Positions 10,930 to 48,555 of a stretch of DNA of 64,000 nucleotides are shown in pieces (positions within the stretch are counted from its first letter, which is position 1; each line of letters opens with the position of its first letter). The position numbers and the translations under genes were made by a program. The notes below the pieces were generated by a model. That model saw nothing but the letters and a program-made list of their open reading frames with translations, searched no databases and had not been told where the DNA came from. Source of the stretch: Thermoplasmata archaeon (GTDB lineage: Archaea > Thermoplasmatota > Thermoplasmata > GCA-020350865); assembly GCA_020348445.1 (NCBI GenBank), contig CP070751.1, positions 3,758,495-3,822,494 on the forward strand, given 5' to 3'.

Positions 10930-10930
10930 T

Positions 10931-16972: not shown

Positions 16973-16977
16973 TATGA

Positions 16978-27822: not shown

Positions 27823-28107
27823 TCACTCATCCTCCACTCCCGACATCAATCCTCTTACACAAACTGAGAAATTACATGAATCTGATCTTGCCCTCTCACA
27901 GTAATGACATCTTAAAGTCAGAAGCACTTCTCTTACGATCCATTCCTTTGTCTCGTCATCAACATCTGGAAGGTTCTTTTTAATCTCCATAATACTTTTA
28001 CTCTGTACATCCTTCCATTTTGGTTGTGTTGATAGGTGCATTCTCTTTTTCCATGCATTCCTCATCTCTTCGATCTTCTTTTGTTCTTCTTCGTTTAATT
28101 CACTCAA
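27823..28107 (-). CDS. small Cx2Cx7Cx4C protein, copy X1
   Basis: LTLRCHYCERARSDSCNFSVCVRGL; TTG start after GGAGGGA; four paralogs in the window. Confidence 0.9.
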   Translation of the reverse strand: MSELNEEEQKKIEEMRNAWKKRMHLSTQPKWKDVQSKSIMEIKKNLPDVDDETKEWIVREVLLTLRCHYCERARSDSCNFSVCVRGLMSGVEDE

Positions 28108-31100
28108 GTTGATCCCTCCTTTAGGGCAGCAATGGCCTGAGAGAGAAGTTGAATGTCGGTGAAATGTGCAATATCTATGGCCTTCTCAGGGCATGCTGCG
28201 CCACAAGTCCCGCATCCCTTGCATAGAACCTCGGCTACCTTTGCCTTCAATTCTTCCATATCAACTCTAATTGCACCATATGGACATACCATCTCGCAGG
28301 TTCCACACCCTGTACATTTATCCTCGTTAACTGAAGATACAGTGCCTTCCACAAAGAGTTTTTCCTTGGATAGGATGGTGGCTGCTCTTGATACTGCTGC
28401 ACTTGATTGAGCAACACATTCCTCGAAGAATTTTGGTGAATGAGCAAGACCACAAAGGAATATACCTTCTGTTGCAAATTCTACTGGGCGAAGTTTCATA
28501 TGTGCTTCCAAAAAGAATTTGTGCTTGCTGAGGGGGACCTTCAATATCTGTGCCAAATCTGTATTATCCGTGTGAGGGATCGTTGCTGCACTCAGAATTA
28601 ATAGGTCTGGTCGAAGCACCAGGTCCTCGTTAAGGAATTGCTCTTTGATCTTTACCTCAATTCCTTTTTTATCGCTTACCTTGGGCTTTGTTTCATCATC
28701 GTATCTAATGAACTTTATACCCTTTCTCGCTGCTTCCTCATAAAATATCTCGCTGAATCCATAGGTTCTGATGTCCTTGAATAGAACATATATGTTTGCA
28801 TCTGGTTTTAATTCCTTTATGTTCAAGGCGTTTTTCACCGCCTCGGTACAGCAAACCCTGCTGCAATAAGGTCTCTCTGGCGTTCTGGAACCTACACATT
28901 GAATCATCACTATCGTGTTTGCATCGATTTTTTGCTCTTTAGCCATTTTTTCTTCCAGCTCGAGCTGAGTTAGAACGTTTTCGTTTTTACCATAGAGGTA
29001 TTCAGAGGGCTTGTACTCCTCCCCTCCAGTAGAGACTATGACGATTCCATGTTCGATTTCCTTATCTTCACCGTTATGATCTATTATTGTTTTGAAGTTG
29101 CCAATATATCCGGATACATCTTTTACAGTGCTATTTGTGAATACATGGATTCTTTCATCAGAATCGATGTTCATGACGATTTCTTTCAATTTCTTTTGTA
29201 TGTCTTTTTGCTCGCCCATTAATTCGTGATGTATTCTCTTCATGAGTCCTCCAAGCTCATTCTCTCTCTCAACGATAAAGGCTTCATAACCTTGTTTGGA
29301 TAGTTCCAAGGCTGAATTCATACCGCTTATCCCACCACCTATGACCAAGGCAGATGGTTTTACTTCAATGGGAACCTTTGGCAATGGTGAATTCAATCTT
29401 GCCTTGGTTACAGCCATTCTAACTAAATCCTTTGCTTTCTCTGTAGCGGCATCAGGTTCTCGCATATGAACCCATGAGCACTGATCACGAATATTAGCCA
29501 TCTCGAAAAGATACGGATTTAATCCTGCTTCTGCCACCGTATTTTGGAACAATGGTTGATGGGTCCTTGGGGTGCAAGAAGCCACTATCACCCTATTCAG
29601 CCCATGCTCCTCGATTTTTTCTTTTATCTTTTGTTGAGTATCCTGTGAGCAGGTGTAAAGGTTATTCTCAGCATATGCTACGTTCGGCATAGTTTTTGCA
29701 TACTCAACCACATCGGGTACATCCACTACACCGCCGATGTTGATGCCACAATGACAAACAAAAACGCCTATACGAGGTTCCTCCTCACCTATCTCTCTCT
29801 CAGGCGGGTACTCCTTTACAGTTACCAATTTCCCCCGCTCAGAGGAAATAACTGACGATGCTTTTGCTGCCGCGCCACTTGCCTCTGATACACTGTCGGG
29901 AATGTCCTTTGGTGCCCCAAATGCCCCACCAACAAATATTCCTGGGCGTGAGGTCTCTAACGGGGAAAATAAAATATCTGTTGAGCAAAAATTATATTCA
30001 TTCAAATCTACATTAAGCTTCTCGCTGAGGTTCTTTGCATCTTTAGGTGCCGTCATCCCAACTGCAAGTGTTACGAGGTCGAACTCTTCTGTGACAAGTT
30101 CCCCCTCTTCGATATAGTTTATAATCAAATTATTGGTATTTGGATTTTCAGCGATTGCGGATATCCTATTGTTCTTTACGAACCTTATACCGTGCTCTTT
30201 CTCAGCTCTGATATAATAATCATCGAACTCCTTACCAAAGGCTCGCATGTCCATGAAGAATATAGTGGCTTCCAACCCAGGGTTATGTTCCTGAGCTATC
30301 ACCGCCTCTTTTATTGCGAACATACAGCATACAGAGGAGCAGTATGGATTGCCAATTGATCTATCGCGGGAACCAACGCACTGGATGAACGCCATCTTCT
30401 TTGAGACCTTTCCGTCAGAAGGTCTTAGAACCAGTCCCCCATAAGGACCTGTTGCGCTCAACATGCGCTCTAGCTCAAGACTTGATACCACATTCAGATA
30501 TTTTCCATAACCGTACTCTTTGCGTTTTTTGGTGAGGTCGAACTCATCGAAGCCTGGCGTGACGATAATAGAGCCCACCTCCAGTTGCATTTTTTCCTCG
30601 GTTTGATCATACGCAATGGCCCCTGCTCCACAAACCTCGGAGCAGACGCCGCATCCGATACATATATCCTTATCGATAGCATACACTGACGGCACAGCTT
30701 GGGGATACCTAACAAAAATTGCTTTTCTAAGTTTGAATCCTTTATTGTACTCATCTGGCACCTCAACGGGGCATCTTTGGGTACATATTCCACAACCCGT
30801 ACATTTTGTCTCATCCACTCGTCGAGAGTGTTTTGATATAGTGACCGTAAAATGCCCTGCATCACCCACAACCTCTTCCATATCTGCGTTGGTTATCAAC
30901 TTAATATTTTGATGTCTTCCCGTCTCTACCAATTTTGGAGCCATTATACACATGGCACAATCGTTGGTAGGGAAAGTTTTATCCAATTGGGACATAGCCC
31001 CTCCGATGGTTGGTGATTTTTCCAATAAATATACTTTAAATCCTGAATCCGCTAGATCAAGAGATGATTGCATGCCGGAAATTCCTCCTCCGATGACCAA

Positions 31101-31127
31101 GACCGCACCAACTTTGTCGTTGCTCAT
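28104..31127 (-). CDS. hdrA: two-FAD HdrA-family flavoprotein, copy 3
   Basis: Same motif set; closest to copy 2 (shared TDILFSPLETS, KHKFFLEAH). Confidence 0.95.
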   Translation of the reverse strand: MSNDKVGAVLVIGGGISGMQSSLDLADSGFKVYLLEKSPTIGGAMSQLDKTFPTNDCAMCIMAPKLVETGRHQNIKLITNADMEEVVGDAGHFTVTISKHSRRVDETKCTGCGICTQRCPVEVPDEYNKGFKLRKAIFVRYPQAVPSVYAIDKDICIGCGVCSEVCGAGAIAYDQTEEKMQLEVGSIIVTPGFDEFDLTKKRKEYGYGKYLNVVSSLELERMLSATGPYGGLVLRPSDGKVSKKMAFIQCVGSRDRSIGNPYCSSVCCMFAIKEAVIAQEHNPGLEATIFFMDMRAFGKEFDDYYIRAEKEHGIRFVKNNRISAIAENPNTNNLIINYIEEGELVTEEFDLVTLAVGMTAPKDAKNLSEKLNVDLNEYNFCSTDILFSPLETSRPGIFVGGAFGAPKDIPDSVSEASGAAAKASSVISSERGKLVTVKEYPPEREIGEEEPRIGVFVCHCGINIGGVVDVPDVVEYAKTMPNVAYAENNLYTCSQDTQQKIKEKIEEHGLNRVIVASCTPRTHQPLFQNTVAEAGLNPYLFEMANIRDQCSWVHMREPDAATEKAKDLVRMAVTKARLNSPLPKVPIEVKPSALVIGGGISGMNSALELSKQGYEAFIVERENELGGLMKRIHHELMGEQKDIQKKLKEIVMNIDSDERIHVFTNSTVKDVSGYIGNFKTIIDHNGEDKEIEHGIVIVSTGGEEYKPSEYLYGKNENVLTQLELEEKMAKEQKIDANTIVMIQCVGSRTPERPYCSRVCCTEAVKNALNIKELKPDANIYVLFKDIRTYGFSEIFYEEAARKGIKFIRYDDETKPKVSDKKGIEVKIKEQFLNEDLVLRPDLLILSAATIPHTDNTDLAQILKVPLSKHKFFLEAHMKLRPVEFATEGIFLCGLAHSPKFFEECVAQSSAAVSRAATILSKEKLFVEGTVSSVNEDKCTGCGTCEMVCPYGAIRVDMEELKAKVAEVLCKGCGTCGAACPEKAIDIAHFTDIQLLSQAIAALKEGST

Positions 31128-31435
31128 TAATAAATCCCCCCTATTTCTCTTCCTGACATAAGTCCTCGGATACAGATTGAGAAGTTACATTGATCTGTTC
31201 TTGCCCGCTCGCAACTATGGCATCTTAAAGTTAACAAAAGTTCTCGGGTTATCTTTTTCTTTGTTTCCTCGTCGATGTCTGGGAGACTTGTTTTACAAAG
31301 TTGTATGATCTTATTTTGTGTTTGTCCCCAACTTGGTATGGTGGATATACGGCTTTTGTAATCCCATCTGCTTCTTATTTCATCAACAGTTTTCTTATCC
31401 TTTTTGCTCAATTCGCTTTTAGTGTTCTTGGTCAC
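31127..31435 (-). CDS. small Cx2Cx7Cx4C protein, copy X2
   Basis: LTLRCHSCERARTDQCNFSICIRGL; GTG start; overlaps both neighbours. Confidence 0.9.
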   Translation of the reverse strand: MTKNTKSELSKKDKKTVDEIRSRWDYKSRISTIPSWGQTQNKIIQLCKTSLPDIDEETKKKITRELLLTLRCHSCERARTDQCNFSICIRGLMSGREIGGIY

Positions 31436-32217
31436 TTTATCCCCTCCTCTACTGCTAAATATAAAGGAGTATCATTGTCAATCCTGTCAAGCATCACCAG
31501 ACCTCGGTCCCTTAACGTCACAATATGTTGTAATACTCGATTGGGGGGAAGTTCTAGGCGCTGAGCCAGTTCATCTACTGATAACGCTTCATCCCTAACT
31601 TCAAAAATAATACTACATCTATCTAATTCATAATTGATGGCGGCGTCAAGTACGGTGTCTATTTCCTCCTGAGGAACTTTCTCATTGTATACATTTCCTT
31701 CCATAACCAAATCCAATTCTCTTGAAACAAGTAACTTCAATCTAAAGTCCTTCACAGCATTTTTTGCTGCAAATAATGCCTTAAGAATATCAACGTTAGG
31801 TGTTGTTCCGCTAACGGGTGATGGCCCAATTTCTTTTATTTGCTTTGTGAATTCTCGGATAGTTTCTGCAAATCGTTCGCCTTCGGAAGCAGAAATCCAT
31901 TCTAGTCTGAGTCGCTCCTCTTCAAACCCTATCCTCTTCAATAATTTCTTTGTCAGTTTTACCCTCTTTTCAGCAAAATAATTACCTGTTTGATAATGGC
32001 AATCTCCAAAATGACATCCACCAACAAGGATCCCATCTGCACCTTGGATGAACATTTCCAAGATAAGAGATGGTTCGACCCTACCACTACACATTACCCT
32101 TACTATCCTAAGATTTGCAGGATATTGATATCTGCTCACACCTGCCAGATCAGCACCTGCATATGAGCACCAGTTGCATAAAAATCCCAGAATTTTAGGT
32201 TCGAATTTTGTTGCCAT
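31432..32217 (-). CDS. mvhD: MvhD-wHTH fusion
   Basis: MvhD motifs plus ALSVDELAQRLELPPNRVLQHIVTLRDRG. Confidence 0.9.
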   Translation of the reverse strand: MATKFEPKILGFLCNWCSYAGADLAGVSRYQYPANLRIVRVMCSGRVEPSLILEMFIQGADGILVGGCHFGDCHYQTGNYFAEKRVKLTKKLLKRIGFEEERLRLEWISASEGERFAETIREFTKQIKEIGPSPVSGTTPNVDILKALFAAKNAVKDFRLKLLVSRELDLVMEGNVYNEKVPQEEIDTVLDAAINYELDRCSIIFEVRDEALSVDELAQRLELPPNRVLQHIVTLRDRGLVMLDRIDNDTPLYLAVEEGIK

Positions 32218-35200: not shown

Positions 35201-35228
35201 CCAGTGCGGCTCCTATAGTTTCATCCAT
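32217..35228 (-). CDS. hdrA: two-FAD HdrA-family flavoprotein, copy 4
   Basis: Same motif set; true start MDETIGAALVIGGG at 35228 after a GGAGGTGAT SD. Confidence 0.95.
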   Translation of the reverse strand: MDETIGAALVIGGGIAGMQSALDLADSGFYVYIVDYSPSIGGAMAQLDKTFPTNDCAMCIMAPKLVETGRHQNIKLITNANVENVEGEAGNFKVTINKRPRYVDESKCTGCGLCTQRCPVEVKDEYNRGFKIRKAVYIKYPQAVPPIHCIDQDHCIGCGICETQCRAGAIKYSQTQEKIDLNVGSIIVSPGFEEFDLRTMRREYGYGRFPNVVSSLELERMLSATGPYGGVVLRPSDGKVAQKIAFIQCVGSRDRSIGNPYCSSVCCMFAIKEAVIAQEHTPELSSTIFFMDMRAFGKEFDDYYIRAAKEHKVRFVSNNRISSVEEMPKTKNLKIVYIFGGELKEEEFDLVVLSVGMEKPKGAHELGEKLGIELNDFDFCNTTIFSPISTNKPGIYVCGVFQDPKDIPDSVAQASGAATKVSSIIASQRNTLTTVKEYPPEKEVGEEEPRIGAFICHCGINIGGVVNVPKVVEYAKTLPNVIFAEENLYTCSQDTQEHIKEKIKEHNLNRVMVASCTPRTHGPLFQNTVAESGLNPYLFEMANIRDQCSWVHMEEPERATEKAKDLVRMALAKARLSTALPKVPIDVKPSALVIGGGISGMNAALELASQGFEAHIVEKESELGGLVNRLHYGLKGEDIPTWLNKTIENVNSNDKIKIYKNTTVKDVNGYVGNFVTTLDQNGEEKEIEHGAIIVASGGAEYQPKEFLYGKNDKVLTQLEFDNILYNNELDPNAKTVVMIQCVGCRDEIRTYCSRVCCVEAVKNALKAKEKNPQISVFVLFKDMRTYGFREIYYEEAARQGIQFIRFFDNTKPVVTDDNGLEVKVYDHFLNEDVVIKPDYLVLSAATVPNPDNYDLAKILKVPLTKDGFFLEAHMKLRPVEFATDGIFVCGLAHSPKFFNECISQSSAAVSRAATILSKEKLFVEGMVSSVDEELCIGCRTCEFVCPYGAVRKDEEELVAKVMEVLCKGCGICAGSCPENAITIRNYTETQLTAQAMAALREAI

Positions 35229-35533
35229 CAGATCACCTCCTGACCAGAAAGAAGACCGCGAATACAAACTGAGAAGTTGCATTCATCGCTACGGGCTCTT
35301 TCGCAACTGTGACATCTAAGTGTTAGAAGCATATTTCTTGTGATTTTCTTCTTTGTCTCTTCATCGATATCAGGTAACGAGCTCAGGCATTCCTGGATGA
35401 TCTTTGTTTGAACCTGTCCCCATCTGGGAAGTGTGGATATTCTATCCTGGTTTCGCCATGAATCCTTTATCATCCTGACCTTAGCCTCTGAACCTTTTTT
35501 AGATGTTTTTGAAGGAGCCTTTTCTTTCTTCAT
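35228..35533 (-). CDS. small Cx2Cx7Cx4C protein, copy X3
   Basis: LTLRCHSCERARSDECNFSVCIRGL. Confidence 0.9.
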   Translation of the reverse strand: MKKEKAPSKTSKKGSEAKVRMIKDSWRNQDRISTLPRWGQVQTKIIQECLSSLPDIDEETKKKITRNMLLTLRCHSCERARSDECNFSVCIRGLLSGQEVI

Positions 35534-36336
35534 CTAAGCACCTCCTCTTTTGGAGTTATGTAAAGGGGCATCACACCGTCGAATCTATCCACCACGACAA
35601 GGCCTCTGTCTTTGAGGGTAACAATATGCTGCAATACTATTTCAGGGGATAGATTAATCTGTGAGGCGATGTCCAAAACTGAATAAGGCCCGTCTATGGT
35701 CATCAATAGTATTTTCTGCCTGGCCATCTCCTCATCAATGGCAGAGTCCATGAGATTATCGAACTCCTCTTGTGAAATTGTTTTGTCGTAGACATTGCCT
35801 TTTTCTGTTAGGTTGATTTCTCGGGCCACCAAGGACCTCAATCTAAAATCTCTTGCTGCATTTTTGGCAACAAAAAGACCTTCCAGTTTATCAACATCAG
35901 GATTCTTCCCAGCAACAGGGCTTGGCCCTAAAGTTTTTACCTCGTTTACAAAATCCTCCACAACCTTGGAAAACCTCTCACCCTCAGATGCTGATACCCA
36001 TTCCAGGCGCAATCTGTTAGGATTAAGACCAGACTTTTCGATTAATTTCTTTGCGAGTTTTATTTTCTTCTCAGTGTAGTAATTACCAGTAATATAATGG
36101 CAGTCACCAAGGTGACAACCACCTACAAGTACTCCATCTGCACCATGTATCAACATCTCGATTATGAGAACTGGATCCACTCTTGAACTGCACATGACCC
36201 TGACAGTTCTTGTGTTTGTCGGGTACTGGTACCTGGAAACTCCAGCCAAATCAGCTCCTGCATATGAGCACCAGTTGCATAGAAATGCAATGATCTTGGG
36301 TTCGAATCCAGATGCTGTTGCTTCTTCTTCACTCAT
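35530..36336 (-). CDS. mvhD: MvhD-wHTH fusion
   Basis: MvhD motifs plus PYSVLDIASQINLSPEIVLQHIVTLKDRG. Confidence 0.9.
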   Translation of the reverse strand: MSEEEATASGFEPKIIAFLCNWCSYAGADLAGVSRYQYPTNTRTVRVMCSSRVDPVLIIEMLIHGADGVLVGGCHLGDCHYITGNYYTEKKIKLAKKLIEKSGLNPNRLRLEWVSASEGERFSKVVEDFVNEVKTLGPSPVAGKNPDVDKLEGLFVAKNAARDFRLRSLVAREINLTEKGNVYDKTISQEEFDNLMDSAIDEEMARQKILLMTIDGPYSVLDIASQINLSPEIVLQHIVTLKDRGLVVVDRFDGVMPLYITPKEEVLR

Positions 36337-38237
36337 GTCCCTACCTCCTCCAACGCCGCAAGGGCCTCAGCCGTGAGCTGCTCATCTGTATAGTGAGTCA
36401 TTGTAATGGCCTTCTCAGGACATATGGAGCCGCAAGTTCCGCAGCCTTTGCATGCCGCTACAATGACCTCTGCAAGCCCTTCCTCATCAAATTGAATCGC
36501 ACCATATGGGCATACCACTTCACATGACTTGCACCCCGAGCAGCGCTCCCTGTCCACATAGGAAACTATGGCCTCAGCCTGAACATAACCCAGGCTCATG
36601 GGTATTGAAGCACGGGATGCGGCACCATATGCTTGGGCAACGGCCTCGGTGATGTTTGCAGGTCCGTGAGCAGTCCCGCAAAGGAAAATACCGTCAGTAG
36701 CAAAATCAACTGGACGAAGTTTAACATGGGCCTCCAAGAAGAATTCATCTCTACCCAAGGGAACCTTGAGCATCTTTGAAAGTTCCTGGGCATCTGGTCT
36801 CTGGGTAAGAGGTGTTGCCAATATTATCAGATCAGGATTCATCTTTCTGTCGGCCTTCAATGTCTCGTGGTAATAGGATACTGTGAGTTTTCCATCCTCC
36901 ATTGAGACCTTTGGTGGATTCTCAGGGACGAAGCGAACGAACTTTACCCTCTGCTCCCTGGATTTATTGTATAGCAGCTCCTGCTCTATACCATATGTTG
37001 TGATTCCTCTGTTGAAGACCGTGACATCCACTGCTGCCCCTCTTTCTTTGGGTCTTTCCTCGCCTCTTTCTGCACCCCTTCTTCTTCCACCTCTCCTTCC
37101 CCTTCTGTCCCTTCTGCTTCTTCTTCTGGATTCACCCTCCTCCTCCTCTGGTTCCTCTGCTTTTTCCTCTTCTTTATCCGAAACCGCCTTTTCATCCACA
37201 CTGGCTTCCTCTACTTTAGCTTCTGCATCACCGCCCTTTGAGGCCATCTCCATGACCTTCATTGCGTTCTTGACTGTAACAGTGCAGCATATTCTAGAGC
37301 AGTATTCCTTGTCCTGACCCCTTGCTCCCGAACATGTTATGAAGGCAACACTCTTTAAATCCGCGGGGACTTTGTCTTCCTTTACCATCTTCTCAAAGTC
37401 CGTTAATGTTATTATATTGTCGTGTTCTCCAAGACCATAGAGTCCCTTTGGTCTGTATTCATCGGCACCTGTTGCAACGATGATGGTTCCCACACCAATT
37501 TCCTTGTCCTCCCCATTCACATTTAAAACGGCATCGTACTTGCCGATGTAACCGGTAAGTGATTTTAAGGTGGTATTCTTGTAAAGTTGAATCTTGTCAT
37601 TTGCCTCCACTTTTTTAATCAATCCCTCATAGGCTTTTGCACTGCTTTCTTGGGTTTGATAAAGGGTGCTCAATTTTCTTAGAAATCCTCCGAGTTCAGG
37701 TTCTTTTTCTATCAAATGTGTTTCAAAACCCTGATTGGCCAGATTGAGGGCCGCTGTCATACCTGCTATACCACCACCTATCACCAGAGAAGAGGGTCTA
37801 ACATCGATTTTCACCTCCTCTTGAGGCTCCAAGAGCACGGCCCTTGCCACACCCATTTTTATCAGATCCTTGGACTTTGCCGTGGCTTTCTCCTGCTCTT
37901 TCATATGAACCCATGAGCAGTGCTCCCTGATGTTCACGAATGTGAAAAGGTATTTGTTCAGTCCTGCCTCCTCGCAGATTCTCATAAAAAGTGGAGCATG
38001 TGTTCTGGGTGTGCATGATGCCACAATCACCCTGGTAAGATTCTTCTCCTTAATCGCATTTTTTATGGCTGTCAAACCATCATCAGCACATGTATAAAGA
38101 TTGTTCTCGGCGTGAACCACATTTGGCAATGTTTTTGCGTACTCTGCAACGTCCGGTACATCAACAAATCCCCCGATGTTCACACCGCAGTGACATACGA
38201 ATACACCGATTCTGGGCTCTTTTATCTCCATGGCCAT
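36333..38237 (-). CDS. hdrA: HdrA-family protein, C-terminal half type (QmoB-like: N-terminal Fe-S domain, FAD, C-terminal ferredoxin) with low-complexity insert
   Basis: IGVFVCHCG, GGGIAG, CSRICC, CSGCKSCEVVCP/CKGCGTCGSICP; ~70-aa E-rich then R/G-rich insert. Confidence 0.92.
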   Translation of the reverse strand: MAMEIKEPRIGVFVCHCGVNIGGFVDVPDVAEYAKTLPNVVHAENNLYTCADDGLTAIKNAIKEKNLTRVIVASCTPRTHAPLFMRICEEAGLNKYLFTFVNIREHCSWVHMKEQEKATAKSKDLIKMGVARAVLLEPQEEVKIDVRPSSLVIGGGIAGMTAALNLANQGFETHLIEKEPELGGFLRKLSTLYQTQESSAKAYEGLIKKVEANDKIQLYKNTTLKSLTGYIGKYDAVLNVNGEDKEIGVGTIIVATGADEYRPKGLYGLGEHDNIITLTDFEKMVKEDKVPADLKSVAFITCSGARGQDKEYCSRICCTVTVKNAMKVMEMASKGGDAEAKVEEASVDEKAVSDKEEEKAEEPEEEEGESRRRSRRDRRGRRGGRRRGAERGEERPKERGAAVDVTVFNRGITTYGIEQELLYNKSREQRVKFVRFVPENPPKVSMEDGKLTVSYYHETLKADRKMNPDLIILATPLTQRPDAQELSKMLKVPLGRDEFFLEAHVKLRPVDFATDGIFLCGTAHGPANITEAVAQAYGAASRASIPMSLGYVQAEAIVSYVDRERCSGCKSCEVVCPYGAIQFDEEGLAEVIVAACKGCGTCGSICPEKAITMTHYTDEQLTAEALAALEEVGT

Positions 38238-39691: not shown

Positions 39692-39743
39692 TTTCCATAT
39701 CTCGTCATGGATATCTGCGGTATATTTTTCAATAGTTATGGTA

Positions 39744-40871
39744 TCATTTTTCATTATCATCCATATTTTTATTTTTCAATGCCCTTTCTCTCTTCATATT
39801 TGCAAATTCTGAAATTTTTTCTAATTGTTCCTGGGCAAGATTATCGGATCCTCCTTGGCTTTTATCTAACTCTTCTATGAACCTGTGGCGAATTGCATCT
39901 TGATAAATCGCCTCTCCCAAATCTGTTCTGATCAATACAGTGGTCCATCCCTCAGGTGAACCCAAACCGCCAAAAGAAAGGTCTGCAAAGTCGTTTGCAA
40001 AATCTGAGCAGGCAAGACAGGCAGAGCGGGCAAATTCCTCCATTTTTTCCAAGGGAATGTGTTTTGTATCACCATTTTTTTGCTTGATTATGAAATCCTC
40101 CCTGATATTCATATTCTCGATGTCATCAAAATTCACGCCAAGGATTTTTTCCATATCTCTTTTTTTAGATACATCAAAGGAAAAATTCTCGGTGCAAAAA
40201 AGGCCGAAAACGAACTTCACTACATGGGAGGGTACAACATGCAAACTTTGCATCTTTCTCAGGGTATGTACTTGACACGGTGTGCTCACAACAACTATTT
40301 TCACCAAATCCATATTGGTAATTTCTTTTATTGCAAACATGGTTGGAGAATATGTGGAGAACCTGCTAAGCTCCTCGACACCACAAATTCCCGTGAATCT
40401 CGAGCCGGCAGCAGAGAGAACCTCTTCGTAGGAGGTGGCTATCATGGGCTCTCTGGCAAATTGCGCAGTCTTCTTGGATACCACAGCACCATCGATCATT
40501 TTTTTTTCCAATAAGAAATGTAGAATTGAAGTGACAACTCCACCATCTGTTGCATTTTTTCGAATCTCTGGGTTTGTACTTCTGGCAGATACAATATTTT
40601 TAAACCTACCAACGGGTGAAACCCAATGATAAGTGTCTTTTAGATCCTGGTCAAGAATACTAATCTGTGGGCAGATAATATAGCAGATACCACATTCAAG
40701 GCAGCTTTCTTCATCCAAATATTTTGGCCTTCCATCCTCGCCAAAACCGATGGCCATAAGCTCTCCTGCAGAGCAAAACGAGACACACCCTCCACAGGAT
40801 CCGCATAATCCAGGTTCATGAACTTCTTTGACCAGGTCCTTGAATGTCTTTGTCTCATCAATTTCGTCCAA
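39744..40871 (-). CDS. FrhB/FdhB-like flavoprotein with N-terminal 2x[4Fe-4S]
   Basis: CGSCGGCVSFC, CLECGICYIICP, TDGGVVTSIL, STPCQV, GLFCTENF, CLACSDF. Confidence 0.88.
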   Translation of the reverse strand: MDEIDETKTFKDLVKEVHEPGLCGSCGGCVSFCSAGELMAIGFGEDGRPKYLDEESCLECGICYIICPQISILDQDLKDTYHWVSPVGRFKNIVSARSTNPEIRKNATDGGVVTSILHFLLEKKMIDGAVVSKKTAQFAREPMIATSYEEVLSAAGSRFTGICGVEELSRFSTYSPTMFAIKEITNMDLVKIVVVSTPCQVHTLRKMQSLHVVPSHVVKFVFGLFCTENFSFDVSKKRDMEKILGVNFDDIENMNIREDFIIKQKNGDTKHIPLEKMEEFARSACLACSDFANDFADLSFGGLGSPEGWTTVLIRTDLGEAIYQDAIRHRFIEELDKSQGGSDNLAQEQLEKISEFANMKRERALKNKNMDDNEK

Positions 40872-41003
40872 AACCCCAATGCCCCCAATCCCAGGTATAA
40901 AATTGGAGATTAAAAAACTTATTATTATCCGAAAGCTATGAATTTTGAAAGCAAGTAATAGTTAAAATAGTTCGTAACAAATAAGAAAATATTTTAAAGG
41001 AAC

Positions 41004-41420
41004 TTATTTCGAAGATCCGAGGGGATTTGGACCAAGAGCCTTTATTTGCTCAACAAATTCGTTCATGGTCTGTGCAAACTTCTCTGCTTCAGAAGCAGAA
41101 AGCCATTCACCCCTCAATCTCCCAGAGCCCAAACCCAGCATGTCAAGTATTTGCTGTGTGGTTTCAATCCTCTCTTTTGCACGAAGATTGCCAGATATGT
41201 AATGGCAATCGTCCAACTTGCATCCAGTCACCATTACACCGTCGGCCCCGTACTCAAAGGCCTTCATAATGAATTCAGGTTCGATTCTTCCTGAGCACAT
41301 GAACCTTATGATATTGACACAGGAAGGATATTTATATCGATTGATACCTGCTAAATCAGCGGATGTGTAAGAGCACCAATTACAGGAGAATGCAATTATC
41401 TTTGGTTCGAACTCAGTCAG
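41004..41420 (-). CDS. mvhD: MvhD-type subunit, stand-alone, apparent CTG start
   Basis: SCNWCSY, MCSGR, GCKLDDCHY, EWLSASE; GGAGGTG-GGAGA-CTG ACT GAG TTC GAA CCA; gives 138 aa. Confidence 0.88.
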   Translation of the reverse strand: MTEFEPKIIAFSCNWCSYTSADLAGINRYKYPSCVNIIRFMCSGRIEPEFIMKAFEYGADGVMVTGCKLDDCHYISGNLRAKERIETTQQILDMLGLGSGRLRGEWLSASEAEKFAQTMNEFVEQIKALGPNPLGSSK

Positions 41421-41721
41421 TCTCCCACCTCCTAATCGCCGAAGGAGCATTAATATCATATGTAAAATTCGAGCAGGTGAGGGCGAGTTTCTTTTTCCCC
41501 CATGTTCCGATGAAAAACTGATGTTTTTCAAGGCCTCGGGAAATCTTTGATTTCCCAAGGTTTCTTTGCGAGCCCGAGCCATCGTGGTGGACAGAAATTG
41601 AATCTAAACACTTACTGTCCTCCACTGTGTAGTGGAAAACATATTTAGTATTAGGGGTATTGTTTTCCACGACAGCAGAGAATTTTACCTCAAAGAAAAA
41701 GGCGGGTTCGAAATCAGTCAA
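41413..41721 (-). CDS. hypothetical 102-aa protein inside the hdr operon
   Basis: TTG start after a G-rich SD; fills the gap between hdrA and mvhD and overlaps mvhD by 8 nt. Confidence 0.55.
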   Translation of the reverse strand: MTDFEPAFFFEVKFSAVVENNTPNTKYVFHYTVEDSKCLDSISVHHDGSGSQRNLGKSKISRGLEKHQFFIGTWGKKKLALTCSNFTYDINAPSAIRRWETD

Positions 41722-41748
41722 TTATGGTACCCCCTTTTTTTGAGCAGG

Positions 41749-43515
41749 TCACCCCTCCACCTCCATCTTATATTCTAAAATCGCTTTGATCATTGGAAGT
41801 ATCTGCTCTCTTTTGAAGTGGCGAATTGAAATGGCCTTGTTACAGCATCCTGCCGAGCATTTACCATCCCCTTGACAAAGAATGGGGTCCACATGGGATA
41901 CTTTTCTCCCATCCTTGACTACAATCACTGCGGCATTGAATTCGCAATTTTCTGCACATTTACCGCAGCCAACACACATTTCTTCATCAACAACTGCAAC
42001 CCCGCCTCCAATGTATGTTGAGCCCTTTTGAAGCAGTTTTATGGCATTGGATGCAGAAAGCCTGGCATCCTCGATTGAATATCTGATTCCCTTTGGTCCC
42101 TGGGCGCAGCCCGCAATGAAAATTCCCCTACGCTCTTCAGGAGTGAGCATGGGATTCATGTATTTTATAAAACCGTCTATGTCCAATGGCAGGTGTAAAG
42201 TTTCAGCCAATTTTGTGGTTGCATCTCTTGCCTCCTGACCCACAGAGAGCACGACAAGATCACTTTCGATCTCAAGGGGTGTTCCGGCATCCACATCCTC
42301 ACATCTTAGAATTACCTTGCCCTCCTTCTCGAAAATCTCTCCAACCCTTCCCCTAACGAAATTTACTCCCGCAGCTTTAGCTTCCTCATAGAATTCCTCA
42401 AAGCCCCTGTAAGGGCCCCTTAAGTCCATGTAGTGAATGTAAACTTCAGTACCAGGATAGCGTTTTTTGATTTCCATGGCCTGGCCAATTGCGTATGTGC
42501 AGCATACCAGTGAGCAGTGGGGATTTCCCTTGTTGGCATCTCTTGAGCCCACACATTGAATGAAGTTAACGGTCTTGGGTATCTTGCCGTCCGAGGGTCG
42601 GTGAAGTTTTCCCCCTTTATCTCTTTGGGCCATGATCATCCTTTCGAGTTCGATTGTGGAAATAACATTCTTGTGGTCATAGCTGTATTCCTTCAATTTT
42701 GAGGGATCGAAGATCTGGGAACCAGTAGCAATTATTATCGTGCCAACATCGATTTCCTTTTCCCCATCAGGAGTTTTTATTTTCACATGTCGGTTTCCCA
42801 AACCACCTGTGATTTCGGTAACTTCCGAGGATAGGAGGACCTCTATTTTATCATGCTGATTAACATCCTCGATCTTCGGTGTTAGGACGCAGCTTTTACA
42901 GGATTGAATGCAGCATATCCCGCAGTTGTGCGTGGGAAAAGTCATGGAGAGCTCGTATGCCCTTCCACCGAGTTTTTCAGTTTTTTCCACGAGGTACACC
43001 TGATACCCTGCGTTTGCGATATCCAAGGCGGCCTGCATTCCCGCCACACCACCACCGATCACCAATGTTGATGGAATTATGTCCACCTTTGTATCCTCAA
43101 GTGCTTCAAGAGTATTTGCTCTGGCAACTGAACCTGCGATTATGCGCTTTGCCTTTTGTGTAGCTTCGTTTTTATCCTCGTGTATCCATGCACATTGTTC
43201 TCTTATATTTGCCTGCTCATATTGATATTTGTTAAGGCCTCCTTCAACAACTCCTCCCCCGATCGTGGATTCGTAAATCTTTGGAGTACAGGCAGCAACA
43301 ACCACCGCATCAAAATTTTCTTTTTCACATTCCTCAGAAAGAAACTTCTGGCCGGAAACCGAGCATAGGGAATCATGCTTCTTTACAACTTCTACTCCCG
43401 GTAATGCCTCAGCAAATTTAATGATTTCATCAAAATCGATTTTATCTGTGATGTTATCATAACAACTGCATATAAAGAGTCCAACTTTTTTCTCTTTTTT
43501 TTGGTCCAAGACCAT
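41749..43515 (-). CDS. hdrA: single-FAD HdrA-like protein lacking the inserted ferredoxin
   Basis: VGLFICSC, AACTPK, NIREQCAW, GGGVAG, IELER, CVGSR...CSLVCC, C-terminal ferredoxin; start ATG 43515. Confidence 0.9.
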   Translation of the reverse strand: MVLDQKKEKKVGLFICSCYDNITDKIDFDEIIKFAEALPGVEVVKKHDSLCSVSGQKFLSEECEKENFDAVVVAACTPKIYESTIGGGVVEGGLNKYQYEQANIREQCAWIHEDKNEATQKAKRIIAGSVARANTLEALEDTKVDIIPSTLVIGGGVAGMQAALDIANAGYQVYLVEKTEKLGGRAYELSMTFPTHNCGICCIQSCKSCVLTPKIEDVNQHDKIEVLLSSEVTEITGGLGNRHVKIKTPDGEKEIDVGTIIIATGSQIFDPSKLKEYSYDHKNVISTIELERMIMAQRDKGGKLHRPSDGKIPKTVNFIQCVGSRDANKGNPHCSLVCCTYAIGQAMEIKKRYPGTEVYIHYMDLRGPYRGFEEFYEEAKAAGVNFVRGRVGEIFEKEGKVILRCEDVDAGTPLEIESDLVVLSVGQEARDATTKLAETLHLPLDIDGFIKYMNPMLTPEERRGIFIAGCAQGPKGIRYSIEDARLSASNAIKLLQKGSTYIGGGVAVVDEEMCVGCGKCAENCEFNAAVIVVKDGRKVSHVDPILCQGDGKCSAGCCNKAISIRHFKREQILPMIKAILEYKMEVEG

Positions 43516-43568
43516 ACACCCCTTCAGCAATCGCAGCATCTTATGGTCATATTACCAATATCACTTCT

Positions 43569-44714
43569 TTACTTTATTCTTTCTATTATAGCCGATATCA
43601 GATCACCAACAGGAATATCCACTTTCTCCTTCTCAACAGGTATCTCCTTCCATGTGGCACAAGTGAAGTGAATCACACATTTAGGACAAGTTGTAATGAG
43701 CTTATCGGCCCCTGTATTTTTCGCCTCCATTAACCGATCTATCTGCATTATCTTAGAGAGGGATTCACAGGTTGCAAAGGCATTTACTCCGCAGCATGCA
43801 CTGTTCTCCTTTATGTTCTCCATTTCAATCAATTCAAATCCCGCAGCTTCAATGAGTTCCCTGGGGCTGTCGTAGATCTCCAAATGCCTTCCAAGTCTGC
43901 ACGGGTCATGGTATGTAACTTTCTCATTTCCATCGCTTTTAAATTCCAGTTTCCCGTCATCCACCAAATCCATTAGATAATCTGTGATGTAAACCAGCTC
44001 AAAATCCAGATCACCTGCAATATCCTGATAATCGAAATCAAATGTTCTCATCCCTTCTGGGCAGGAAAAAACCACGGTCTTTGCACCAGCTTCCTTTATT
44101 GCCTTGATATTGAGATTCATTAATTTGTCAAAATTATCTTCATCCCCTGTCCAATTGAGATCGTGACCGCAGCATACCTCGTTTTTGCTCATTGCTGGTG
44201 TGATACCGGCTTTGTTCAACACCCTTACATTGTTTTTAGCAATATCAAGGATACCGGCCTTCCTTTCCTCGAAAATCTTATCTAGATGAGCCTGGCAGCC
44301 AGAGAAATAGTACACATCACCCTTTTCTGCAACCTTTAAATCATCGGTAACCCAGCTTAACCTGTTCTGTGGTAACTGGTGAGATTGGATTCTGGCAATT
44401 GTCTGCATCAATCCTCCCTGGGAGCACGTGGGCTCAAATCCGTCTAAAACAGATTCACTTCTAAGTCCTCTGATGAACTCGGTGTAATCCACTTTGTAAG
44501 GACACATCTGACTGCACATGGCACATGTAGTACAGCGCCATATGTCCATGTTCTGGGCAAGGCCCCCCTCCACACCCTCCAATGCCTTAACCACTATCAG
44601 TCTTGGAGCAAAGTTCTGGTCCAGTTTGGCAACGGGACATACAGTCGTGCATTTACCGCATTCAACACAATCATATGCTCCTGTGTCATCGATGAGATCA
44701 TCTATTGCGGACAT
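43569..44714 (-). CDS. HdrD/GlpC-like protein (4Fe-4S dicluster + two CCG domains)
   Basis: CVECGKCTTVCP, CTTCAMCSQMCP; GC...VCCG...CPEG; HDPC...ACCG...CPKC. Confidence 0.88.
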   Translation of the reverse strand: MSAIDDLIDDTGAYDCVECGKCTTVCPVAKLDQNFAPRLIVVKALEGVEGGLAQNMDIWRCTTCAMCSQMCPYKVDYTEFIRGLRSESVLDGFEPTCSQGGLMQTIARIQSHQLPQNRLSWVTDDLKVAEKGDVYYFSGCQAHLDKIFEERKAGILDIAKNNVRVLNKAGITPAMSKNEVCCGHDLNWTGDEDNFDKLMNLNIKAIKEAGAKTVVFSCPEGMRTFDFDYQDIAGDLDFELVYITDYLMDLVDDGKLEFKSDGNEKVTYHDPCRLGRHLEIYDSPRELIEAAGFELIEMENIKENSACCGVNAFATCESLSKIMQIDRLMEAKNTGADKLITTCPKCVIHFTCATWKEIPVEKEKVDIPVGDLISAIIERIK

Positions 44715-47700
44715 TCGATTTCCTCCTTCTGAGGTTTAATGGATTGTTCTATCGGATTCAATGGATTGGGCCCGAGCTCTTTGACCTTGTTTACGAACTC
44801 TGTCATGACCTCTGCAAATCTTTTTCCTTCGGATGCAGAGATCCATTCTAATCGAACACGCCTTTCATCCATACCCAACAATCCTATAAGTTCTTTTACG
44901 TTTTTGACCCTAATTTCCGCCTTCTCATTTCCTGATATATAATGGCAGTCGCCGATATGACAGCCTGCAACCAGTATACCATCCACTCCTTTATGAAGTG
45001 CTTCCATAATAAATGATGGGGAGATTCTTCCCGAGCACATCACCCTTATCACCCTGATATTTGGCGGGTACTGAAATCTGGAAACACCTGCCAAATCAGC
45101 CCCGGCATAGGCACACCAATTGCAGCAGAATGCTAGTATGAAGGGTTCAAATTCCTCCCTCAATTTATGCCCTTCAAGTGCAGAGTCTATCATGGTATGA
45201 ATCTGATCATTTTTGAAATGCTTTGTAATGATGGCGTTATTGCAGCAACTTGCAGCACATGCTCCGCAGCCCTTGCATAAAGCCTCATTGATTTTCGAAT
45301 GCTTTTTCCCTTCATCATCTGTAATGAGCTCGGGGGCGCCGAACTCACAGATATCGACGCATTCTCCACATCCTCGACATTTTGACTCGTCAACAACAGA
45401 GATTACAGCATTTGCTTCAAAGAATTTTTTAGAAAGCAAAGTTGCAGCCCTTGATACCGTCCCCTTAGCCTGTGAAATACATTCCTCCAAGAATTTTGGT
45501 GAATGCGCAAGCCCGCACAAAAAGACCCCCTCGGTTGCGAAATCCAAAGGACGTAATTTCATATGAGCCTCCAGGAAAAATCCATCCTTGGAGAGGGGAA
45601 CCTTAAGCATCTTGGCGATTTTTTCATTGTCGACACTGGGTATTGTGGCTGTGCTTAGAACCAAAAGATCTGGATTGATATCGATATTTTCACCTAGAAA
45701 ATGATCGAAAATTGATACAGAAAGCTCACCACCTGCAAGCTGAACATCGGGCTTTGAATCGTCATAGTACCTGATGAATATTATACCTGATCTTGCAGCC
45801 TCTTCATAGAAGATCTCGCGAAAGCCGTATGTTCTCATGTCCTTGTATAGGATGTATATATTTGCTTCGGGATTCAATTCCTTCAACTTCAAAGCATTTT
45901 TCACGGCCTCTGAGCAGCAGACCCTGCTGCAATATGTCCGTGTCTCATCCCTGCTTCCCACACACTGAATCATAACTACTGTCTTTGCATCCACTTGGCC
46001 TTTTCCTAATCTCTCTTCAAAATCCAGTTGGGTGATGATCCTCTCATCCTGGCCGTATAGGTACTCTTTAGGCTCGTAACTGATGCCGCCGGTAGCAACG
46101 ATAACGGCTCCATGTTCCAATGTCTTCTCCTCGCCGTTTTCAGAAATAGTGGTTTTAAAATCTCCCACACAACCCTCGATATTCTTGATTTCAGAATTTA
46201 CATACACATTTATCTTATCATTGGAATTGATCTTGTCTATGGTTTCCTTTAAAAATTCCTGAAGATTTTCTCCGGTGAGCATATAATGCAGCCGCTTGAG
46301 ATTTCCTCCAAGTTCCTTCTCTTTTTCAACGATATGAGCAGCAAATCCATGCTCAGCCAATTCCAAGACAGCCATCATACCCGATATTCCACCGCCTATG
46401 ACAAGGGCCGATTGATTTATGGGAATTTCCACTTTATACAATGGTTCAAGCAATCTCGTTTTTGAAATGGCCATTCTCACAAGGTCCTTAGCCTTCCTTG
46501 TTGCAGCCTCTGGCTCGTGCATGTGAACCCATGAGCACTGATCGCGGATATTAGCCATTTCAAAGAAGTATGGATTCAACCCCGCCTCTCTTACAGTATT
46601 CTGAAAAAGCGGTTCATGGGTTCGGGGTGTACAGCTGGCCACGACAACGCGGTTGAGATTATGCTCCTCTATTTTTGATTTGATTTTTTGCTGCGTGTCC
46701 TGTGAACATGTGTAGGGGTTACTCTCTGCATAAACAACATTAGGTAGGTTTTTAACGTACTCCACAACCTCTGGAACCTTAACTACACCACCTATGTTGA
46801 TTCCGCAGTGGCAAATGAATACTCCCAAACGGGGCTCCTCCTGGGCTACCTCTTTTTCAGGTGGATACTCCTTTACTTCAACAAGTTTGTCCCTCTCGGA
46901 CGCAATCAAGGACGAAGCACATGCAGCAGCACCGCTTGCTTGGGCCACAGTATCTGGAATATCCTTTGGAGCCGAAAATGCCCCTGAGACGAAAACCCCT
47001 TTCCTGTTTGTCTCAAGAGGTGAAGTAACACTTGTTTCGCAAAAGTTGTAATCATTTAACTCAACACCCAATTTCTCGGCGAGCTCCAAGGCAGTATCTG
47101 GTGAGTCCATGCCAACAGAAAGAACAACCAGATCGAACTCTTCTTCCTTTAACTCCCCCTCGTCAACATAATTCAATATTAAATTGTTGGTGTTTTTATC
47201 CTCTTTTACTCCCGAGACCCTGTTGTTCTTCACAAACCCGATTCCATGCTCCTCTTCTGCTCTAATGTAATAATCATCAAATTCCTTGCCAAATGCCCGC
47301 ATGTCCATAAAGAATATGGTTGATTTTAACCCAGGTGCATGCTCCTGTGCTATTACAGCCTCCTTGATTGCGAACATGCAACATACAGATGAGCAATATG
47401 GATTTCCAGACGTCCTATCTCTGGAACCAACACATTGAATAAATGCAACTTTTTTTGGAATCTCGCCGTCAGAGGGTCGCAGAACCAATCCATTGAAGGG
47501 TCCTGTGGCACTGAGCATGCGCTCCATTTCCAAACTTGAGATCACATTTGGGAATTTTCCATAACCATATTCCTTGCGTTTTGATAGAATGTCAAATTCC
47601 TTAAATCCAGGTGACATGATGATGGAGCCAACTTGTATATTGATCTCCTTTTTTTCCTGGGAATATTTTATGGCCTCTGCCTCACACTGGGTCTCGCAGA

Positions 47701-48235
47701 GCCCGCAGCCAATGCATATCTCCTGGTCAATACAATGAACAGGTGGAACAGCTTGAGGATACTTTACATGGATGGCTTTTCTTCTCTTTAGGCCCTTGTT
47801 GTACTCGTCCTTTACTTCAATGGGGCATCTTTGTGTACAAATACCGCATCCCGTACAACGACTTTCATCCACATATCTCGGCCTCTTGGTGAGGGTGACC
47901 TTGAAATTTCCTGCTCCTCCTTCTACATTCTCCAAATCTGCATTTGTGATGAGCTGGATATTGTGATGGCGTCCAGTCTCCACAAGTTTGGGAGCCATGA
48001 TGCACATTGCACAATCATTTGTAGGGAAGGTCTTATCAAGCTGGGACATTGCCCCACCGATGCTGGGGCTGTTATCGAGGACATAGACTTTGAATCCTGA
48101 ATCTGCCAGATCCAGTGCAGACTGCATGCCTGAGATTCCGCCACCTATTATGAGAATCGCGCCTACCTTTTTTGATTCAGCTTCCTTAATGACTGAAGCA
48201 GCTTCTACCTCGACCTGTCCATCCTTTGCCTCTAT
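44702..48235 (-). CDS. hdrA: two-FAD HdrA fused to C-terminal MvhD, apparent ATA start
   Basis: Track ATG 48127 lies inside the FAD motif (GGGISG-M); the frame is open upstream through KKVGAILIIGGG to ATA 48235; C-terminal CCNWC/MCSG/GCHIGDCH MvhD domain. Confidence 0.92.
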   Translation of the reverse strand: MEAKDGQVEVEAASVIKEAESKKVGAILIIGGGISGMQSALDLADSGFKVYVLDNSPSIGGAMSQLDKTFPTNDCAMCIMAPKLVETGRHHNIQLITNADLENVEGGAGNFKVTLTKRPRYVDESRCTGCGICTQRCPIEVKDEYNKGLKRRKAIHVKYPQAVPPVHCIDQEICIGCGLCETQCEAEAIKYSQEKKEINIQVGSIIMSPGFKEFDILSKRKEYGYGKFPNVISSLEMERMLSATGPFNGLVLRPSDGEIPKKVAFIQCVGSRDRTSGNPYCSSVCCMFAIKEAVIAQEHAPGLKSTIFFMDMRAFGKEFDDYYIRAEEEHGIGFVKNNRVSGVKEDKNTNNLILNYVDEGELKEEEFDLVVLSVGMDSPDTALELAEKLGVELNDYNFCETSVTSPLETNRKGVFVSGAFSAPKDIPDTVAQASGAAACASSLIASERDKLVEVKEYPPEKEVAQEEPRLGVFICHCGINIGGVVKVPEVVEYVKNLPNVVYAESNPYTCSQDTQQKIKSKIEEHNLNRVVVASCTPRTHEPLFQNTVREAGLNPYFFEMANIRDQCSWVHMHEPEAATRKAKDLVRMAISKTRLLEPLYKVEIPINQSALVIGGGISGMMAVLELAEHGFAAHIVEKEKELGGNLKRLHYMLTGENLQEFLKETIDKINSNDKINVYVNSEIKNIEGCVGDFKTTISENGEEKTLEHGAVIVATGGISYEPKEYLYGQDERIITQLDFEERLGKGQVDAKTVVMIQCVGSRDETRTYCSRVCCSEAVKNALKLKELNPEANIYILYKDMRTYGFREIFYEEAARSGIIFIRYYDDSKPDVQLAGGELSVSIFDHFLGENIDINPDLLVLSTATIPSVDNEKIAKMLKVPLSKDGFFLEAHMKLRPLDFATEGVFLCGLAHSPKFLEECISQAKGTVSRAATLLSKKFFEANAVISVVDESKCRGCGECVDICEFGAPELITDDEGKKHSKINEALCKGCGACAASCCNNAIITKHFKNDQIHTMIDSALEGHKLREEFEPFILAFCCNWCAYAGADLAGVSRFQYPPNIRVIRVMCSGRISPSFIMEALHKGVDGILVAGCHIGDCHYISGNEKAEIRVKNVKELIGLLGMDERRVRLEWISASEGKRFAEVMTEFVNKVKELGPNPLNPIEQSIKPQKEEIECPQ

Positions 48236-48555
48236 CCCACCACCCCCTTCCCTGAAAGCAATCCTCTAATGCACACCGAGAAATGACAGGCATCGCTTCT
48301 TGCCCTCTCGCAGCTGTGGCATCTTAACGTGAGAAGTAATTCTCTTGTGATTTTCTTTCTTGTCTCTTCATCTATATCGGGGAGGTTTTCCTTGCAATCC
48401 TGAATGATCTTATTTTGAACCTGAGCCCAGGCGGGTAAGGTGGAGACCTTGTATTTTTTTCTCCAAGAGTTGCGAATATTTTTGATCTTGTCCAACTCTT
48501 CTTCTTTTATTTCCTTGTCACCATTATTAATTTCCATTTTTGTTCCCCTATTCAA
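48232..48555 (-). CDS. small Cx2Cx7Cx4C protein, copy X4
   Basis: LTLRCHSCERARSDACHFSVCIRGL; TTG start. Confidence 0.9.
   Translation of the reverse strand: MNRGTKMEINNGDKEIKEEELDKIKNIRNSWRKKYKVSTLPAWAQVQNKIIQDCKENLPDIDEETRKKITRELLLTLRCHSCERARSDACHFSVCIRGLLSGKGVVG

Follow-up and report, generated by a model that had tools for sequence, protein, structure and literature searches.

The window analyzed here, a stretch of 64,000 nucleotides from the genome of a Thermoplasmata archaeon recovered from sediment metagenomes (NCBI GenBank assembly GCA_020348445.1, contig CP070751.1, positions 3,758,495 to 3,822,494), contains an uninterrupted minus-strand array of genes for HdrA- and MvhD-type proteins, which runs from position 52696 down to 19777. 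Within this array lie four open reading frames (ORFs) for a protein of about 100 residues with four cysteines, for which we use the working name SMALL (copies SMALL_a, b, c and d). The machinery, modules made of HdrA2 and of MvhD extended by a winged helix-turn-helix domain (MvhD-wHTH), is of a known kind; SMALL is a component of it that is new and restricted to one lineage. Pfam identifies its neighbors as FlpD/MvhD proteins with an ArsR-type HTH and as double HdrA proteins of about 1000 amino acids (aa), here called HdrA2x. The SMALL genes and the MvhD-wHTH genes beside them are as follows.

27823..28107, minus strand: SMALL_a, 94 aa, between HdrA2x (28104-31127) and MvhD-wHTH (27014-27799)
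31127..31435, minus strand: SMALL_b, 102 aa, with MvhD-wHTH (31432-32217) before it and HdrA2x (28104-31127) after it
35228..35533, minus strand: SMALL_c, 101 aa, with MvhD-wHTH (35530-36336) before it and HdrA2x (32217-35282) after it
48232..48555, minus strand: SMALL_d, listed at 107 aa, downstream of MvhD-wHTH (48552-49346) and upstream of a HdrA2x-MvhD fusion
27014..27799, minus strand: MvhD-wHTH (FlpD, linker and ArsR-like winged helix), neighbor of SMALL_a
31432..32217, minus strand: MvhD-wHTH, neighbor of SMALL_b
35530..36336, minus strand: MvhD-wHTH, neighbor of SMALL_c
48552..49346, minus strand: MvhD-wHTH, neighbor of SMALL_d

The four paralogs are 55-67% identical in pairwise comparisons, and their alignment has 38 invariant columns. 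The invariant motifs are W-x6-ST-x-P-x-W, LPD(I/V)D(E/D)ET and LTLRC-x2-CERAR-x3-C-x4-C-RGL-SG, the last of which contains the cysteine site, Cx2Cx7Cx4C. A six-frame profile search found exactly four copies in the 5.16-Mb single-contig genome. The ratios of nonsynonymous to synonymous substitution rates (dN/dS) between these copies and orthologs in related genomes are 0.015-0.12, with dS near saturation; the copies evolve under strong purifying selection. Given these low ratios, the more than 210 homologs, and the retention of the pattern Cx2Cx6-8Cx4C in 127 of 127 small homologs that were fetched, we regard the four ORFs as real genes.

Their boundaries interlock with those of the adjacent genes. 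SMALL_a has a TTG start, which overlaps the HdrA stop in the sequence TTGA, and is separated from the following MvhD-wHTH gene by a 23-nucleotide gap. SMALL_b overlaps the MvhD-wHTH stop in GTGA and the HdrA2x start in TAATG, while SMALL_c overlaps the corresponding stop in ATGA and the Met19 start of HdrA2x in TGATG. The overlap with the preceding stop is four nucleotides in copies a to c, and in copy d as well if the listed TTG is used; the stops of SMALL_b and SMALL_c share one nucleotide with the ATG of the next HdrA. These overlaps indicate translational coupling. Strong GGAGG Shine-Dalgarno sites precede SMALL_a to SMALL_c. In SMALL_d, Met7 (48537) is preceded by an AGGGGA Shine-Dalgarno site and the listed TTG has none, and the true start is probably Met7, giving 101 aa. 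The longest ORF of the HdrA2x gene at 32217-35282 overlaps SMALL_c by 55 nucleotides; based on the paralog alignment and the GGAGGTGA Shine-Dalgarno site, its real start is most likely Met19 (MDETIGAALV; ATG 35228-35226), at the SMALL_c stop. The initial annotation of this DNA, made from the sequence alone, had described four paralogs with the motifs above, and this description is fully supported by the ORFs and their alignment. It had also stated that the three copies lying between MvhD-wHTH and HdrA genes overlap both neighbors. This is the case for SMALL_b and, with the Met19 start of HdrA2x, for SMALL_c, but not for SMALL_d, where the downstream HdrA2x-MvhD gene has no canonical start nearby.

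The SMALL family is narrow. A profile search of a collection of 5.8 billion clusters retrieved 210 small homologs at E<=0.001, the best 120 of which are all about 91-106 aa long. When 1.84 billion representatives (50% identity) were scanned exhaustively with HMMER, only seven clusters came up, and the family is therefore compact, with no outgroup visible to HMMER. Every source that gives an organism for the homologs points to Thermoplasmata or Methanomassiliicoccales, and the close relatives bear the NCBI names 'Methanomassiliicoccales archaeon' and 'Thermoplasmata archaeon'. In an alignment of 40 sequences, the most divergent members included, the four cysteines are conserved in all 40, and the invariant positions are T34, P36, W38, L53, L72, C74, C77, E78, C85, F87 and C90 (P0003 numbering). 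SMALL scores below the cut-off of every Pfam and NCBIfam model, and we found no description of the protein in the literature. JGI labels many homologs 'ribosomal protein L44E', and NCBI labels them 'hypothetical'.

The gene neighborhood ties SMALL to the MvhD-wHTH adaptor. Thirteen loci, drawn from four or more families of the class, were examined; in every one, SMALL lies within HdrA arrays and is either beside MvhD-wHTH or fused to it. Three arrangements occur: MvhD-wHTH followed by SMALL and HdrA2x; HdrA followed by SMALL, MvhD-wHTH and HdrA2x; and, upstream of HdrA2x, a fusion protein MvhD-wHTH-SMALL of 330-356 aa that has SMALL as its C-terminal domain (one example is encoded at L016:730-1722). 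MvhD-wHTH is the constant neighbor in either gene order. A search limited to longer proteins found the FlpD domain (PF02662) in 22 of 22 longer SMALL homologs, with the SMALL domain at the extreme C-terminus, right after the wHTH. The core of SMALL in these fusions starts with (R/H/E)-I-S-T-L-P-x-W directly after the last winged-helix strand. Two features of free-standing SMALL, its Lys/Glu-rich N-terminal helix and its first Trp, are missing there, and this segment may therefore serve as a non-covalent tether in the free protein. The natural fusions occur in two other families and form one clade with 99/95 support. A tree of the MvhD-wHTH copies did not recover the SMALL-associated copies as a clade; its deep nodes are unresolved and only the fused forms group.

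Several proposals of the initial annotation agree with these results. The family, which it did not recognize, matches no curated model; SMALL is a dedicated component of the hdr/mvhD cassette, as all 13 loci in hdr arrays show; and the suggested partnership with the wHTH domain has strong genomic support from the natural fusions and from the FlpD domain in all longer homologs. The profile search and neighborhood check that it had proposed gave no match above cut-off to a characterized family and placed SMALL in hdr loci in all 13 cases examined. It had missed two features: a similarity to ribosomal protein L44e that is weak yet reproducible, and the optional nature of SMALL, which is absent from most genomes with MvhD-wHTH.

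The distribution was analyzed in 301 genomes of the class. SMALL is present in 16 of them, a count that leaves out two weak matches (G006, on that genome's true L44e gene, and G079, E 4.2e-4), and the linker-wHTH extension of MvhD is present in 59. All 16 SMALL-positive genomes carry the extension. Within the genus g4, the extension is present in three copies in the four SMALL-positive genomes, versus one or two in the others.

The remaining features of the array and of its surroundings are the following.

23214..24005, minus strand: fifth MvhD-wHTH, with no adjoining SMALL gene
20200-23217, 24006-27017, 28104-31127 and 32217-35282, minus strand: four fused double-HdrA genes, alternating with MvhD-wHTH and SMALL
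19777-20145, minus strand: plain MvhD closing the array
36333..52696, minus strand: upstream half of the array
38237-39544 and 36333-38237, minus strand: split HdrA (435 + 634 aa)
39744-40871, minus strand: FrhB-like
41004-41582, minus strand: MvhD
41749-43539, minus strand: HdrA
43569-44714, minus strand: CCG protein, HdrBC/D-like
44702-48127 (frame open to 48265), minus strand: HdrA2x-MvhD fusion
49343-52696, minus strand: HdrA2x
15896-16972 and 16978-18423, plus strand: MvhG-like small and MvhA-like large [NiFe] hydrogenase subunits, divergently oriented and directly beside the hdr array
8537-15801: maturation genes HypA, HypD, HypE-like (AIR-synthase-family) and HycI protease, beside the hydrogenase

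From 52696 downward, the gene order of the upstream half is HdrA2x, MvhD-wHTH, SMALL_d, HdrA2x-MvhD fusion, CCG (HdrBC/D-like) protein, HdrA, MvhD, FrhB-like protein and split HdrA. It continues with MvhD-wHTH, SMALL_c, HdrA2x, MvhD-wHTH, SMALL_b, HdrA2x, SMALL_a and MvhD-wHTH, and ends with HdrA2x, MvhD-wHTH, HdrA2x and MvhD. The identity matrices of the SMALL, MvhD-wHTH and HdrA2x duplicates show no clear mirror pattern. The Mvh-type hydrogenase at 15896-18423 is likely the electron-input partner of the array. The whole genome encodes 21 FlpD/MvhD domains; extended MvhD copies are also found at 2991994 and 4571063, together with a 332-aa form at 3578617 that lacks SMALL, and one further domain is the plain MvhD of 123-148 aa that terminates the array. 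At 82% completeness, the genome shows no detectable mcrA gene. The only datasets listed as containing the sequence are sediment metagenome DNA assemblies, one of which is probably its source, with no RNA dataset among them.

In the HdrA2x-MvhD fusion, the first ATG (48127) comes only after the Rossmann beta1/GGGISG motif. Above this codon, the frame offers ATT (48262-48260) and ATA (48235-48233, which overlaps the SMALL_d stop) but no ATG, GTG or TTG, and about 60 open codons upstream are kept in the orthologs of L007-L009. The reading frame points to the use of a non-canonical start, or possibly to a G-run error. In other families, an N-terminal MvhD domain forms part of the CCG (HdrBC/D-like) protein, which then measures about 540-600 aa (L024:3992-5629, L025:4572-6245, L026:13166-14782 and L027:2416-4221). 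In the window, by contrast, MvhD is fused to the preceding HdrA2x and not to the CCG protein.

Family f4 shows yet another arrangement, in which a plain MvhD gene is followed by a gene for a stand-alone 130-aa linker-wHTH protein and by an MvhG-like hydrogenase small subunit gene. The position of the linker-wHTH protein between the two suggests that the wHTH module mediates docking between MvhD and the hydrogenase. Stand-alone linker-wHTH ORFs include L026:705-1094 and L028:488-892, both on the minus strand, as well as many ORFs of 129-130 aa in family f4.

The closest solved analog of the proteins surrounding SMALL is the BamE/BamF pair of the class II benzoyl-CoA reductase (BCRII) from Geobacter metallireducens, a likeness drawn from the described architecture. 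In that complex, BamE is a fused HdrA dimer, and BamF is an MvhD homolog more than 100 residues longer than usual, whose wHTH docks on another subunit (cryo-EM preprint, bioRxiv 10.64898/2026.04.10.717634). The window likewise encodes double HdrA proteins of about 1000 aa and MvhD proteins with an extension of about 120 residues that ends in a wHTH, and fused SMALL sits right after the wHTH corresponding to the docking element of BamF. There are differences as well. BCRII has no SMALL-like subunit, BamF is bacterial, contains selenocysteine and docks on the NuoG-like BamI, and the modules of the window are repeated five to six times beside an Mvh-type hydrogenase. The MvhD core itself is conventional. 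The first 130 residues of the natural fusion are 47-51% identical to MvhD of the MvhAGD-HdrABC complex (PDB 5ODC/5ODH chain D, 8RVU_F and 7BKB_F; template modeling (TM) score 0.85-0.90), which is a [2Fe-2S] connector between the electron-input module and HdrA. Classical MvhD has 130-140 aa and possesses neither the wHTH nor the four-Cys C-terminal domain.

In the AlphaFold model of a natural fusion (predicted local distance difference test (pLDDT) 80.6, predicted TM score 0.78), a canonical MvhD core is followed by linker helices and the winged helix, and then by two helices of SMALL at pLDDT 73-85. In Foldseek searches, the N-terminus of the fusion matched the MvhD chains of solved Hdr complexes (E ~1e-12) and its wHTH matched ArsR/SmtB proteins (CzrA, SmtB, HlyU); the SMALL part had no match. 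Modeled alone with AlphaFold2 from the 40-sequence alignment, SMALL is all-helical (helices 10-27, 37-52, 58-71 and 87-95) with a mean pLDDT of 64. With this low-confidence model, Foldseek found no match in the PDB at E<=0.001 and a wide VIA-align search returned only generic three-helix matches (best Z 4.8). The ESM Atlas offered no usable match for SMALL.

We propose that SMALL is probably a detachable docking module of the MvhD-wHTH adaptor, likely stabilized by zinc. Its physical association with the adaptor, judged by analogy and gene context, is highly probable. The analogy with BamE/BamF and the Rosetta-stone fusion both argue for a detachable extension of the docking end of the adaptor, and because SMALL is fused to the end of MvhD in related archaea, it is very probably an extra, putatively metal-binding piece of MvhD. 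According to this model, SMALL would be a lineage-specific helical four-Cys domain of about 70 residues, the third module of the adaptor after the MvhD [2Fe-2S] core and the linker with its winged helix. It would be either translated together with the adaptor or joined to it covalently and would, for this reason, be a subunit, in fixed stoichiometry, of the BamE/BamF-like electron-bifurcating modules of HdrA2 and MvhD that hydrogenase-linked Thermoplasmata without methanogenesis possess. One structural metal ion, probably zinc, would most likely be held by the four cysteines, and SMALL may extend the docking surface of the winged helix, thereby joining the adaptor to another HdrA2 module or to the input hydrogenase. 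The analysis shows that the genes are real, that they belong exclusively to hdr/mvhD surroundings, that natural fusions exist, that the distribution is nested within that of the extension, and that a weak L44e similarity is present; we infer that SMALL also touches its partner when unfused, which metal it holds, and that it docks rather than transfers electrons.

Several observations weigh against this proposal. As many as 43 of the 59 extension-bearing genomes lack SMALL entirely, as do one MvhD-wHTH of the array and others in the genome. The adaptor can therefore work without SMALL, which is an optional addition to an adaptor that is extended already. The cysteine loop is undefined in the AlphaFold models, with pLDDT below 55 both in SMALL alone and in the fusion, and being part of the fusion does not raise the confidence of the SMALL helices. 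Four cysteines within 17 residues could also hold a [4Fe-4S] or [2Fe-2S] cluster. Lastly, SMALL is predicted to be all-helical, while L44e, its only apparent relative, is beta-rich and extended, and this difference in fold weakens the argument for zinc by homology.

The similarity to L44e emerged from several approaches. The NCBIfam L44e model (NF004425) is the top or only weak match for three of the four paralogs, with E-values down to 0.0025, although the scores stay far below the cut-offs (best 18.4 bits versus 87 for NCBIfam, and 13.3 versus 25 for Pfam PF00935). In a six-frame search of the genome with the L44e model, SMALL copies accounted for three of the five best non-self matches, and the SMALL profile in turn weakly matches the true L44e gene of another genome. 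Alignment of the SMALL family with 26 L44e sequences of the class (G000:C1:4659857-4660129 and L039-L063) by hhalign gave a probability of 74%, P 2.7e-5 and a score of 32.6 over 50 ungapped columns, compared with 11.0 ± 2.3 (maximum 18.5) for 150 column-shuffled controls and 10.3 for the reversed alignment. A profile search of the PDB with SMALL found no eL42 chain at E<=10. The match covers the C-terminal two-thirds of L44e, and no other remote relative of SMALL was found. The aligned features are (P/K)-W-G-Q, a Pro 16 residues later and L-R-C-x2-C-x7-C; the third Cys, seven residues after the C-terminal CxxC, occurs in 12 of the 26 L44e sequences, including families that carry SMALL. In contrast to L44e/eL42, SMALL lacks the N-terminal CxxC knuckle, keeps the C-terminal CxxC followed by x7-C-x4-C, and is acidic and helix-forming where the ribosomal protein has a basic, Gly/Pro-rich rRNA-binding stretch. 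The derivation of SMALL from an L44e fragment is plausible, at roughly even odds.

Two ligands of SMALL (the CxxC) and the Cx2Cx7C spacing match the L44e-type zinc site. All weak matches of SMALL are to Zn(Cys/His)4 modules (L44e, PyrI_C, the PriA ribbon and TAZ1), and none is to an Fe-S family. Since these similarities are uniform and two of the ligands may descend from the L44e zinc site, the balance tilts toward structural zinc over an Fe-S relay or a dithiol, and a structural zinc ion held by the four invariant cysteines has a slightly better than even chance of being correct. TAZ1 of CBP/p300 (PDB 1U2N and 1R8U), the best sequence match in the PDB (E=0.04 over 37 residues), was rejected as a homolog, given that its ligands are out of register. 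Its helix-loop-helix structure with metal ligands at helix ends resembles what is predicted for SMALL. However, TAZ1 belongs to a eukaryotic co-activator and has repeated HCCC sites with x3/x12/x4 spacing, whereas SMALL has a single CCCC site; the fold search lends no support, and the likeness is an analogy only.

The strongest alternative is that SMALL binds a redox-active Fe-S cluster, acting for example as a relay from the MvhD [2Fe-2S] cluster to the next HdrA2 unit or to the bifurcating flavin adenine dinucleotide (FAD), and so wiring the modules together. We consider it possible but distinctly less probable than zinc. The four invariant cysteines in 17 residues, an operon composed solely of Fe-S flavoproteins, and a cysteine loop that is unstructured in the apo predictions, as in cluster-dependent folds, are all consistent with a cluster. 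Moreover, a gap of about 28 A between the BamF [2Fe-2S] cluster and the bifurcating FAD of BCRII is unexplained (bioRxiv 10.64898/2026.04.10.717634), which makes an added relay conceivable. On the other hand, SMALL contains no ferredoxin (CxxCxxCxxxC(P)), HiPIP, radical-SAM or CCG motif; no Fer4 model of Pfam, including ferredoxin-type/HdrC families (PF00037, PF13187 and relatives), matches it even at E=10; and its weak similarities are all to zinc modules. The absence of SMALL from most genomes with the same modules would also be odd for an obligatory wire. The specific suggestion of the initial annotation, an electron relay replacing HdrC, finds no support: SMALL shows neither a ferredoxin motif nor a Fer4 match, and the same clusters contain a CCG/HdrBC-like protein.

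A more far-reaching scenario combines the L44e origin with a redox function: an L44e fragment would have been exapted in a Thermoplasmata ancestor into a redox-active (Fe-S or dithiol) module on the MvhD winged helix, coupling successive HdrA2 units, so that the array would form one chained multi-bifurcation machine fed by the adjacent hydrogenase. We regard this scenario as speculative and rather unlikely.

It is less likely still that SMALL is a redox-active dithiol/disulfide or persulfide carrier, a DsrC- or LbpA-like substrate of the CCG (HdrB/D-like) subunit in the absence of CoM-S-S-CoB. The lack of a detectable mcrA gene in the 82% complete genome would suit such a carrier, as would the conservation of the cysteines in a flexible C-terminal region and the presence of a CCG protein in every cluster examined. 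Yet SMALL is fused to MvhD-wHTH and is neither fused to nor beside the CCG protein, three of its four copies lie far from the single CCG gene of the array, and most related hdr clusters do without it. Spacing of the CxxC...Cx4C type is usual in metal sites. DsrC/TusE (PF04358) gave no Pfam match, and the last Cys of SMALL stands 11-14 residues from the C-terminus, in the Cx4C pair, and not in a C-terminal Cys-x10-Cys arm with a penultimate Cys as in that family; likewise, SMALL has no CC pair, and so no CCG motif (CXnCCGXmCXXC), and no Pfam match to the HdrB/HdrD CCG domain (PF02754).

We attach very little weight to the idea that the MvhD-wHTH proteins are redox-sensing DNA-binding regulators with SMALL as a co-regulator or sensor partner. 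The wHTH does resemble ArsR/SmtB metal-sensing repressors (Pfam HTH_5/HTH_20, in line with the Foldseek matches), but five translationally coupled copies amid enzyme subunits are unlike the gene layout of a regulator, and the corresponding wHTH of BamF is a structural docking element in the solved complex. That SMALL is a divergent L44e paralog with an RNA or ribosome role, placed in the hdr array by chance, is hardly credible despite the JGI names and the weak reciprocal profile similarity, as its score of 18 bits falls far short of the curated cut-off of 87, the N-terminal CxxC knuckle is absent, an acidic helix-forming sequence replaces the basic rRNA-binding stretch, SMALL is exclusive to the hdr context and fused to MvhD, and the genuine L44e gene (115 bits; genome 4659857-4660129) lies elsewhere, outside the window.

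To conclude, flavin-based electron bifurcation has HdrA/MvhD modules at its core. SMALL, which is alternately separate from and fused to a BamF-type adaptor, offers a testable handle on how these modules are assembled, including outside methanogens. Our analysis also corrects the recurrent public mis-annotation of this family as 'ribosomal protein L44E'. If the link to L44e is true, SMALL would be a rare case in which part of a ribosomal protein has been recruited to a redox complex.

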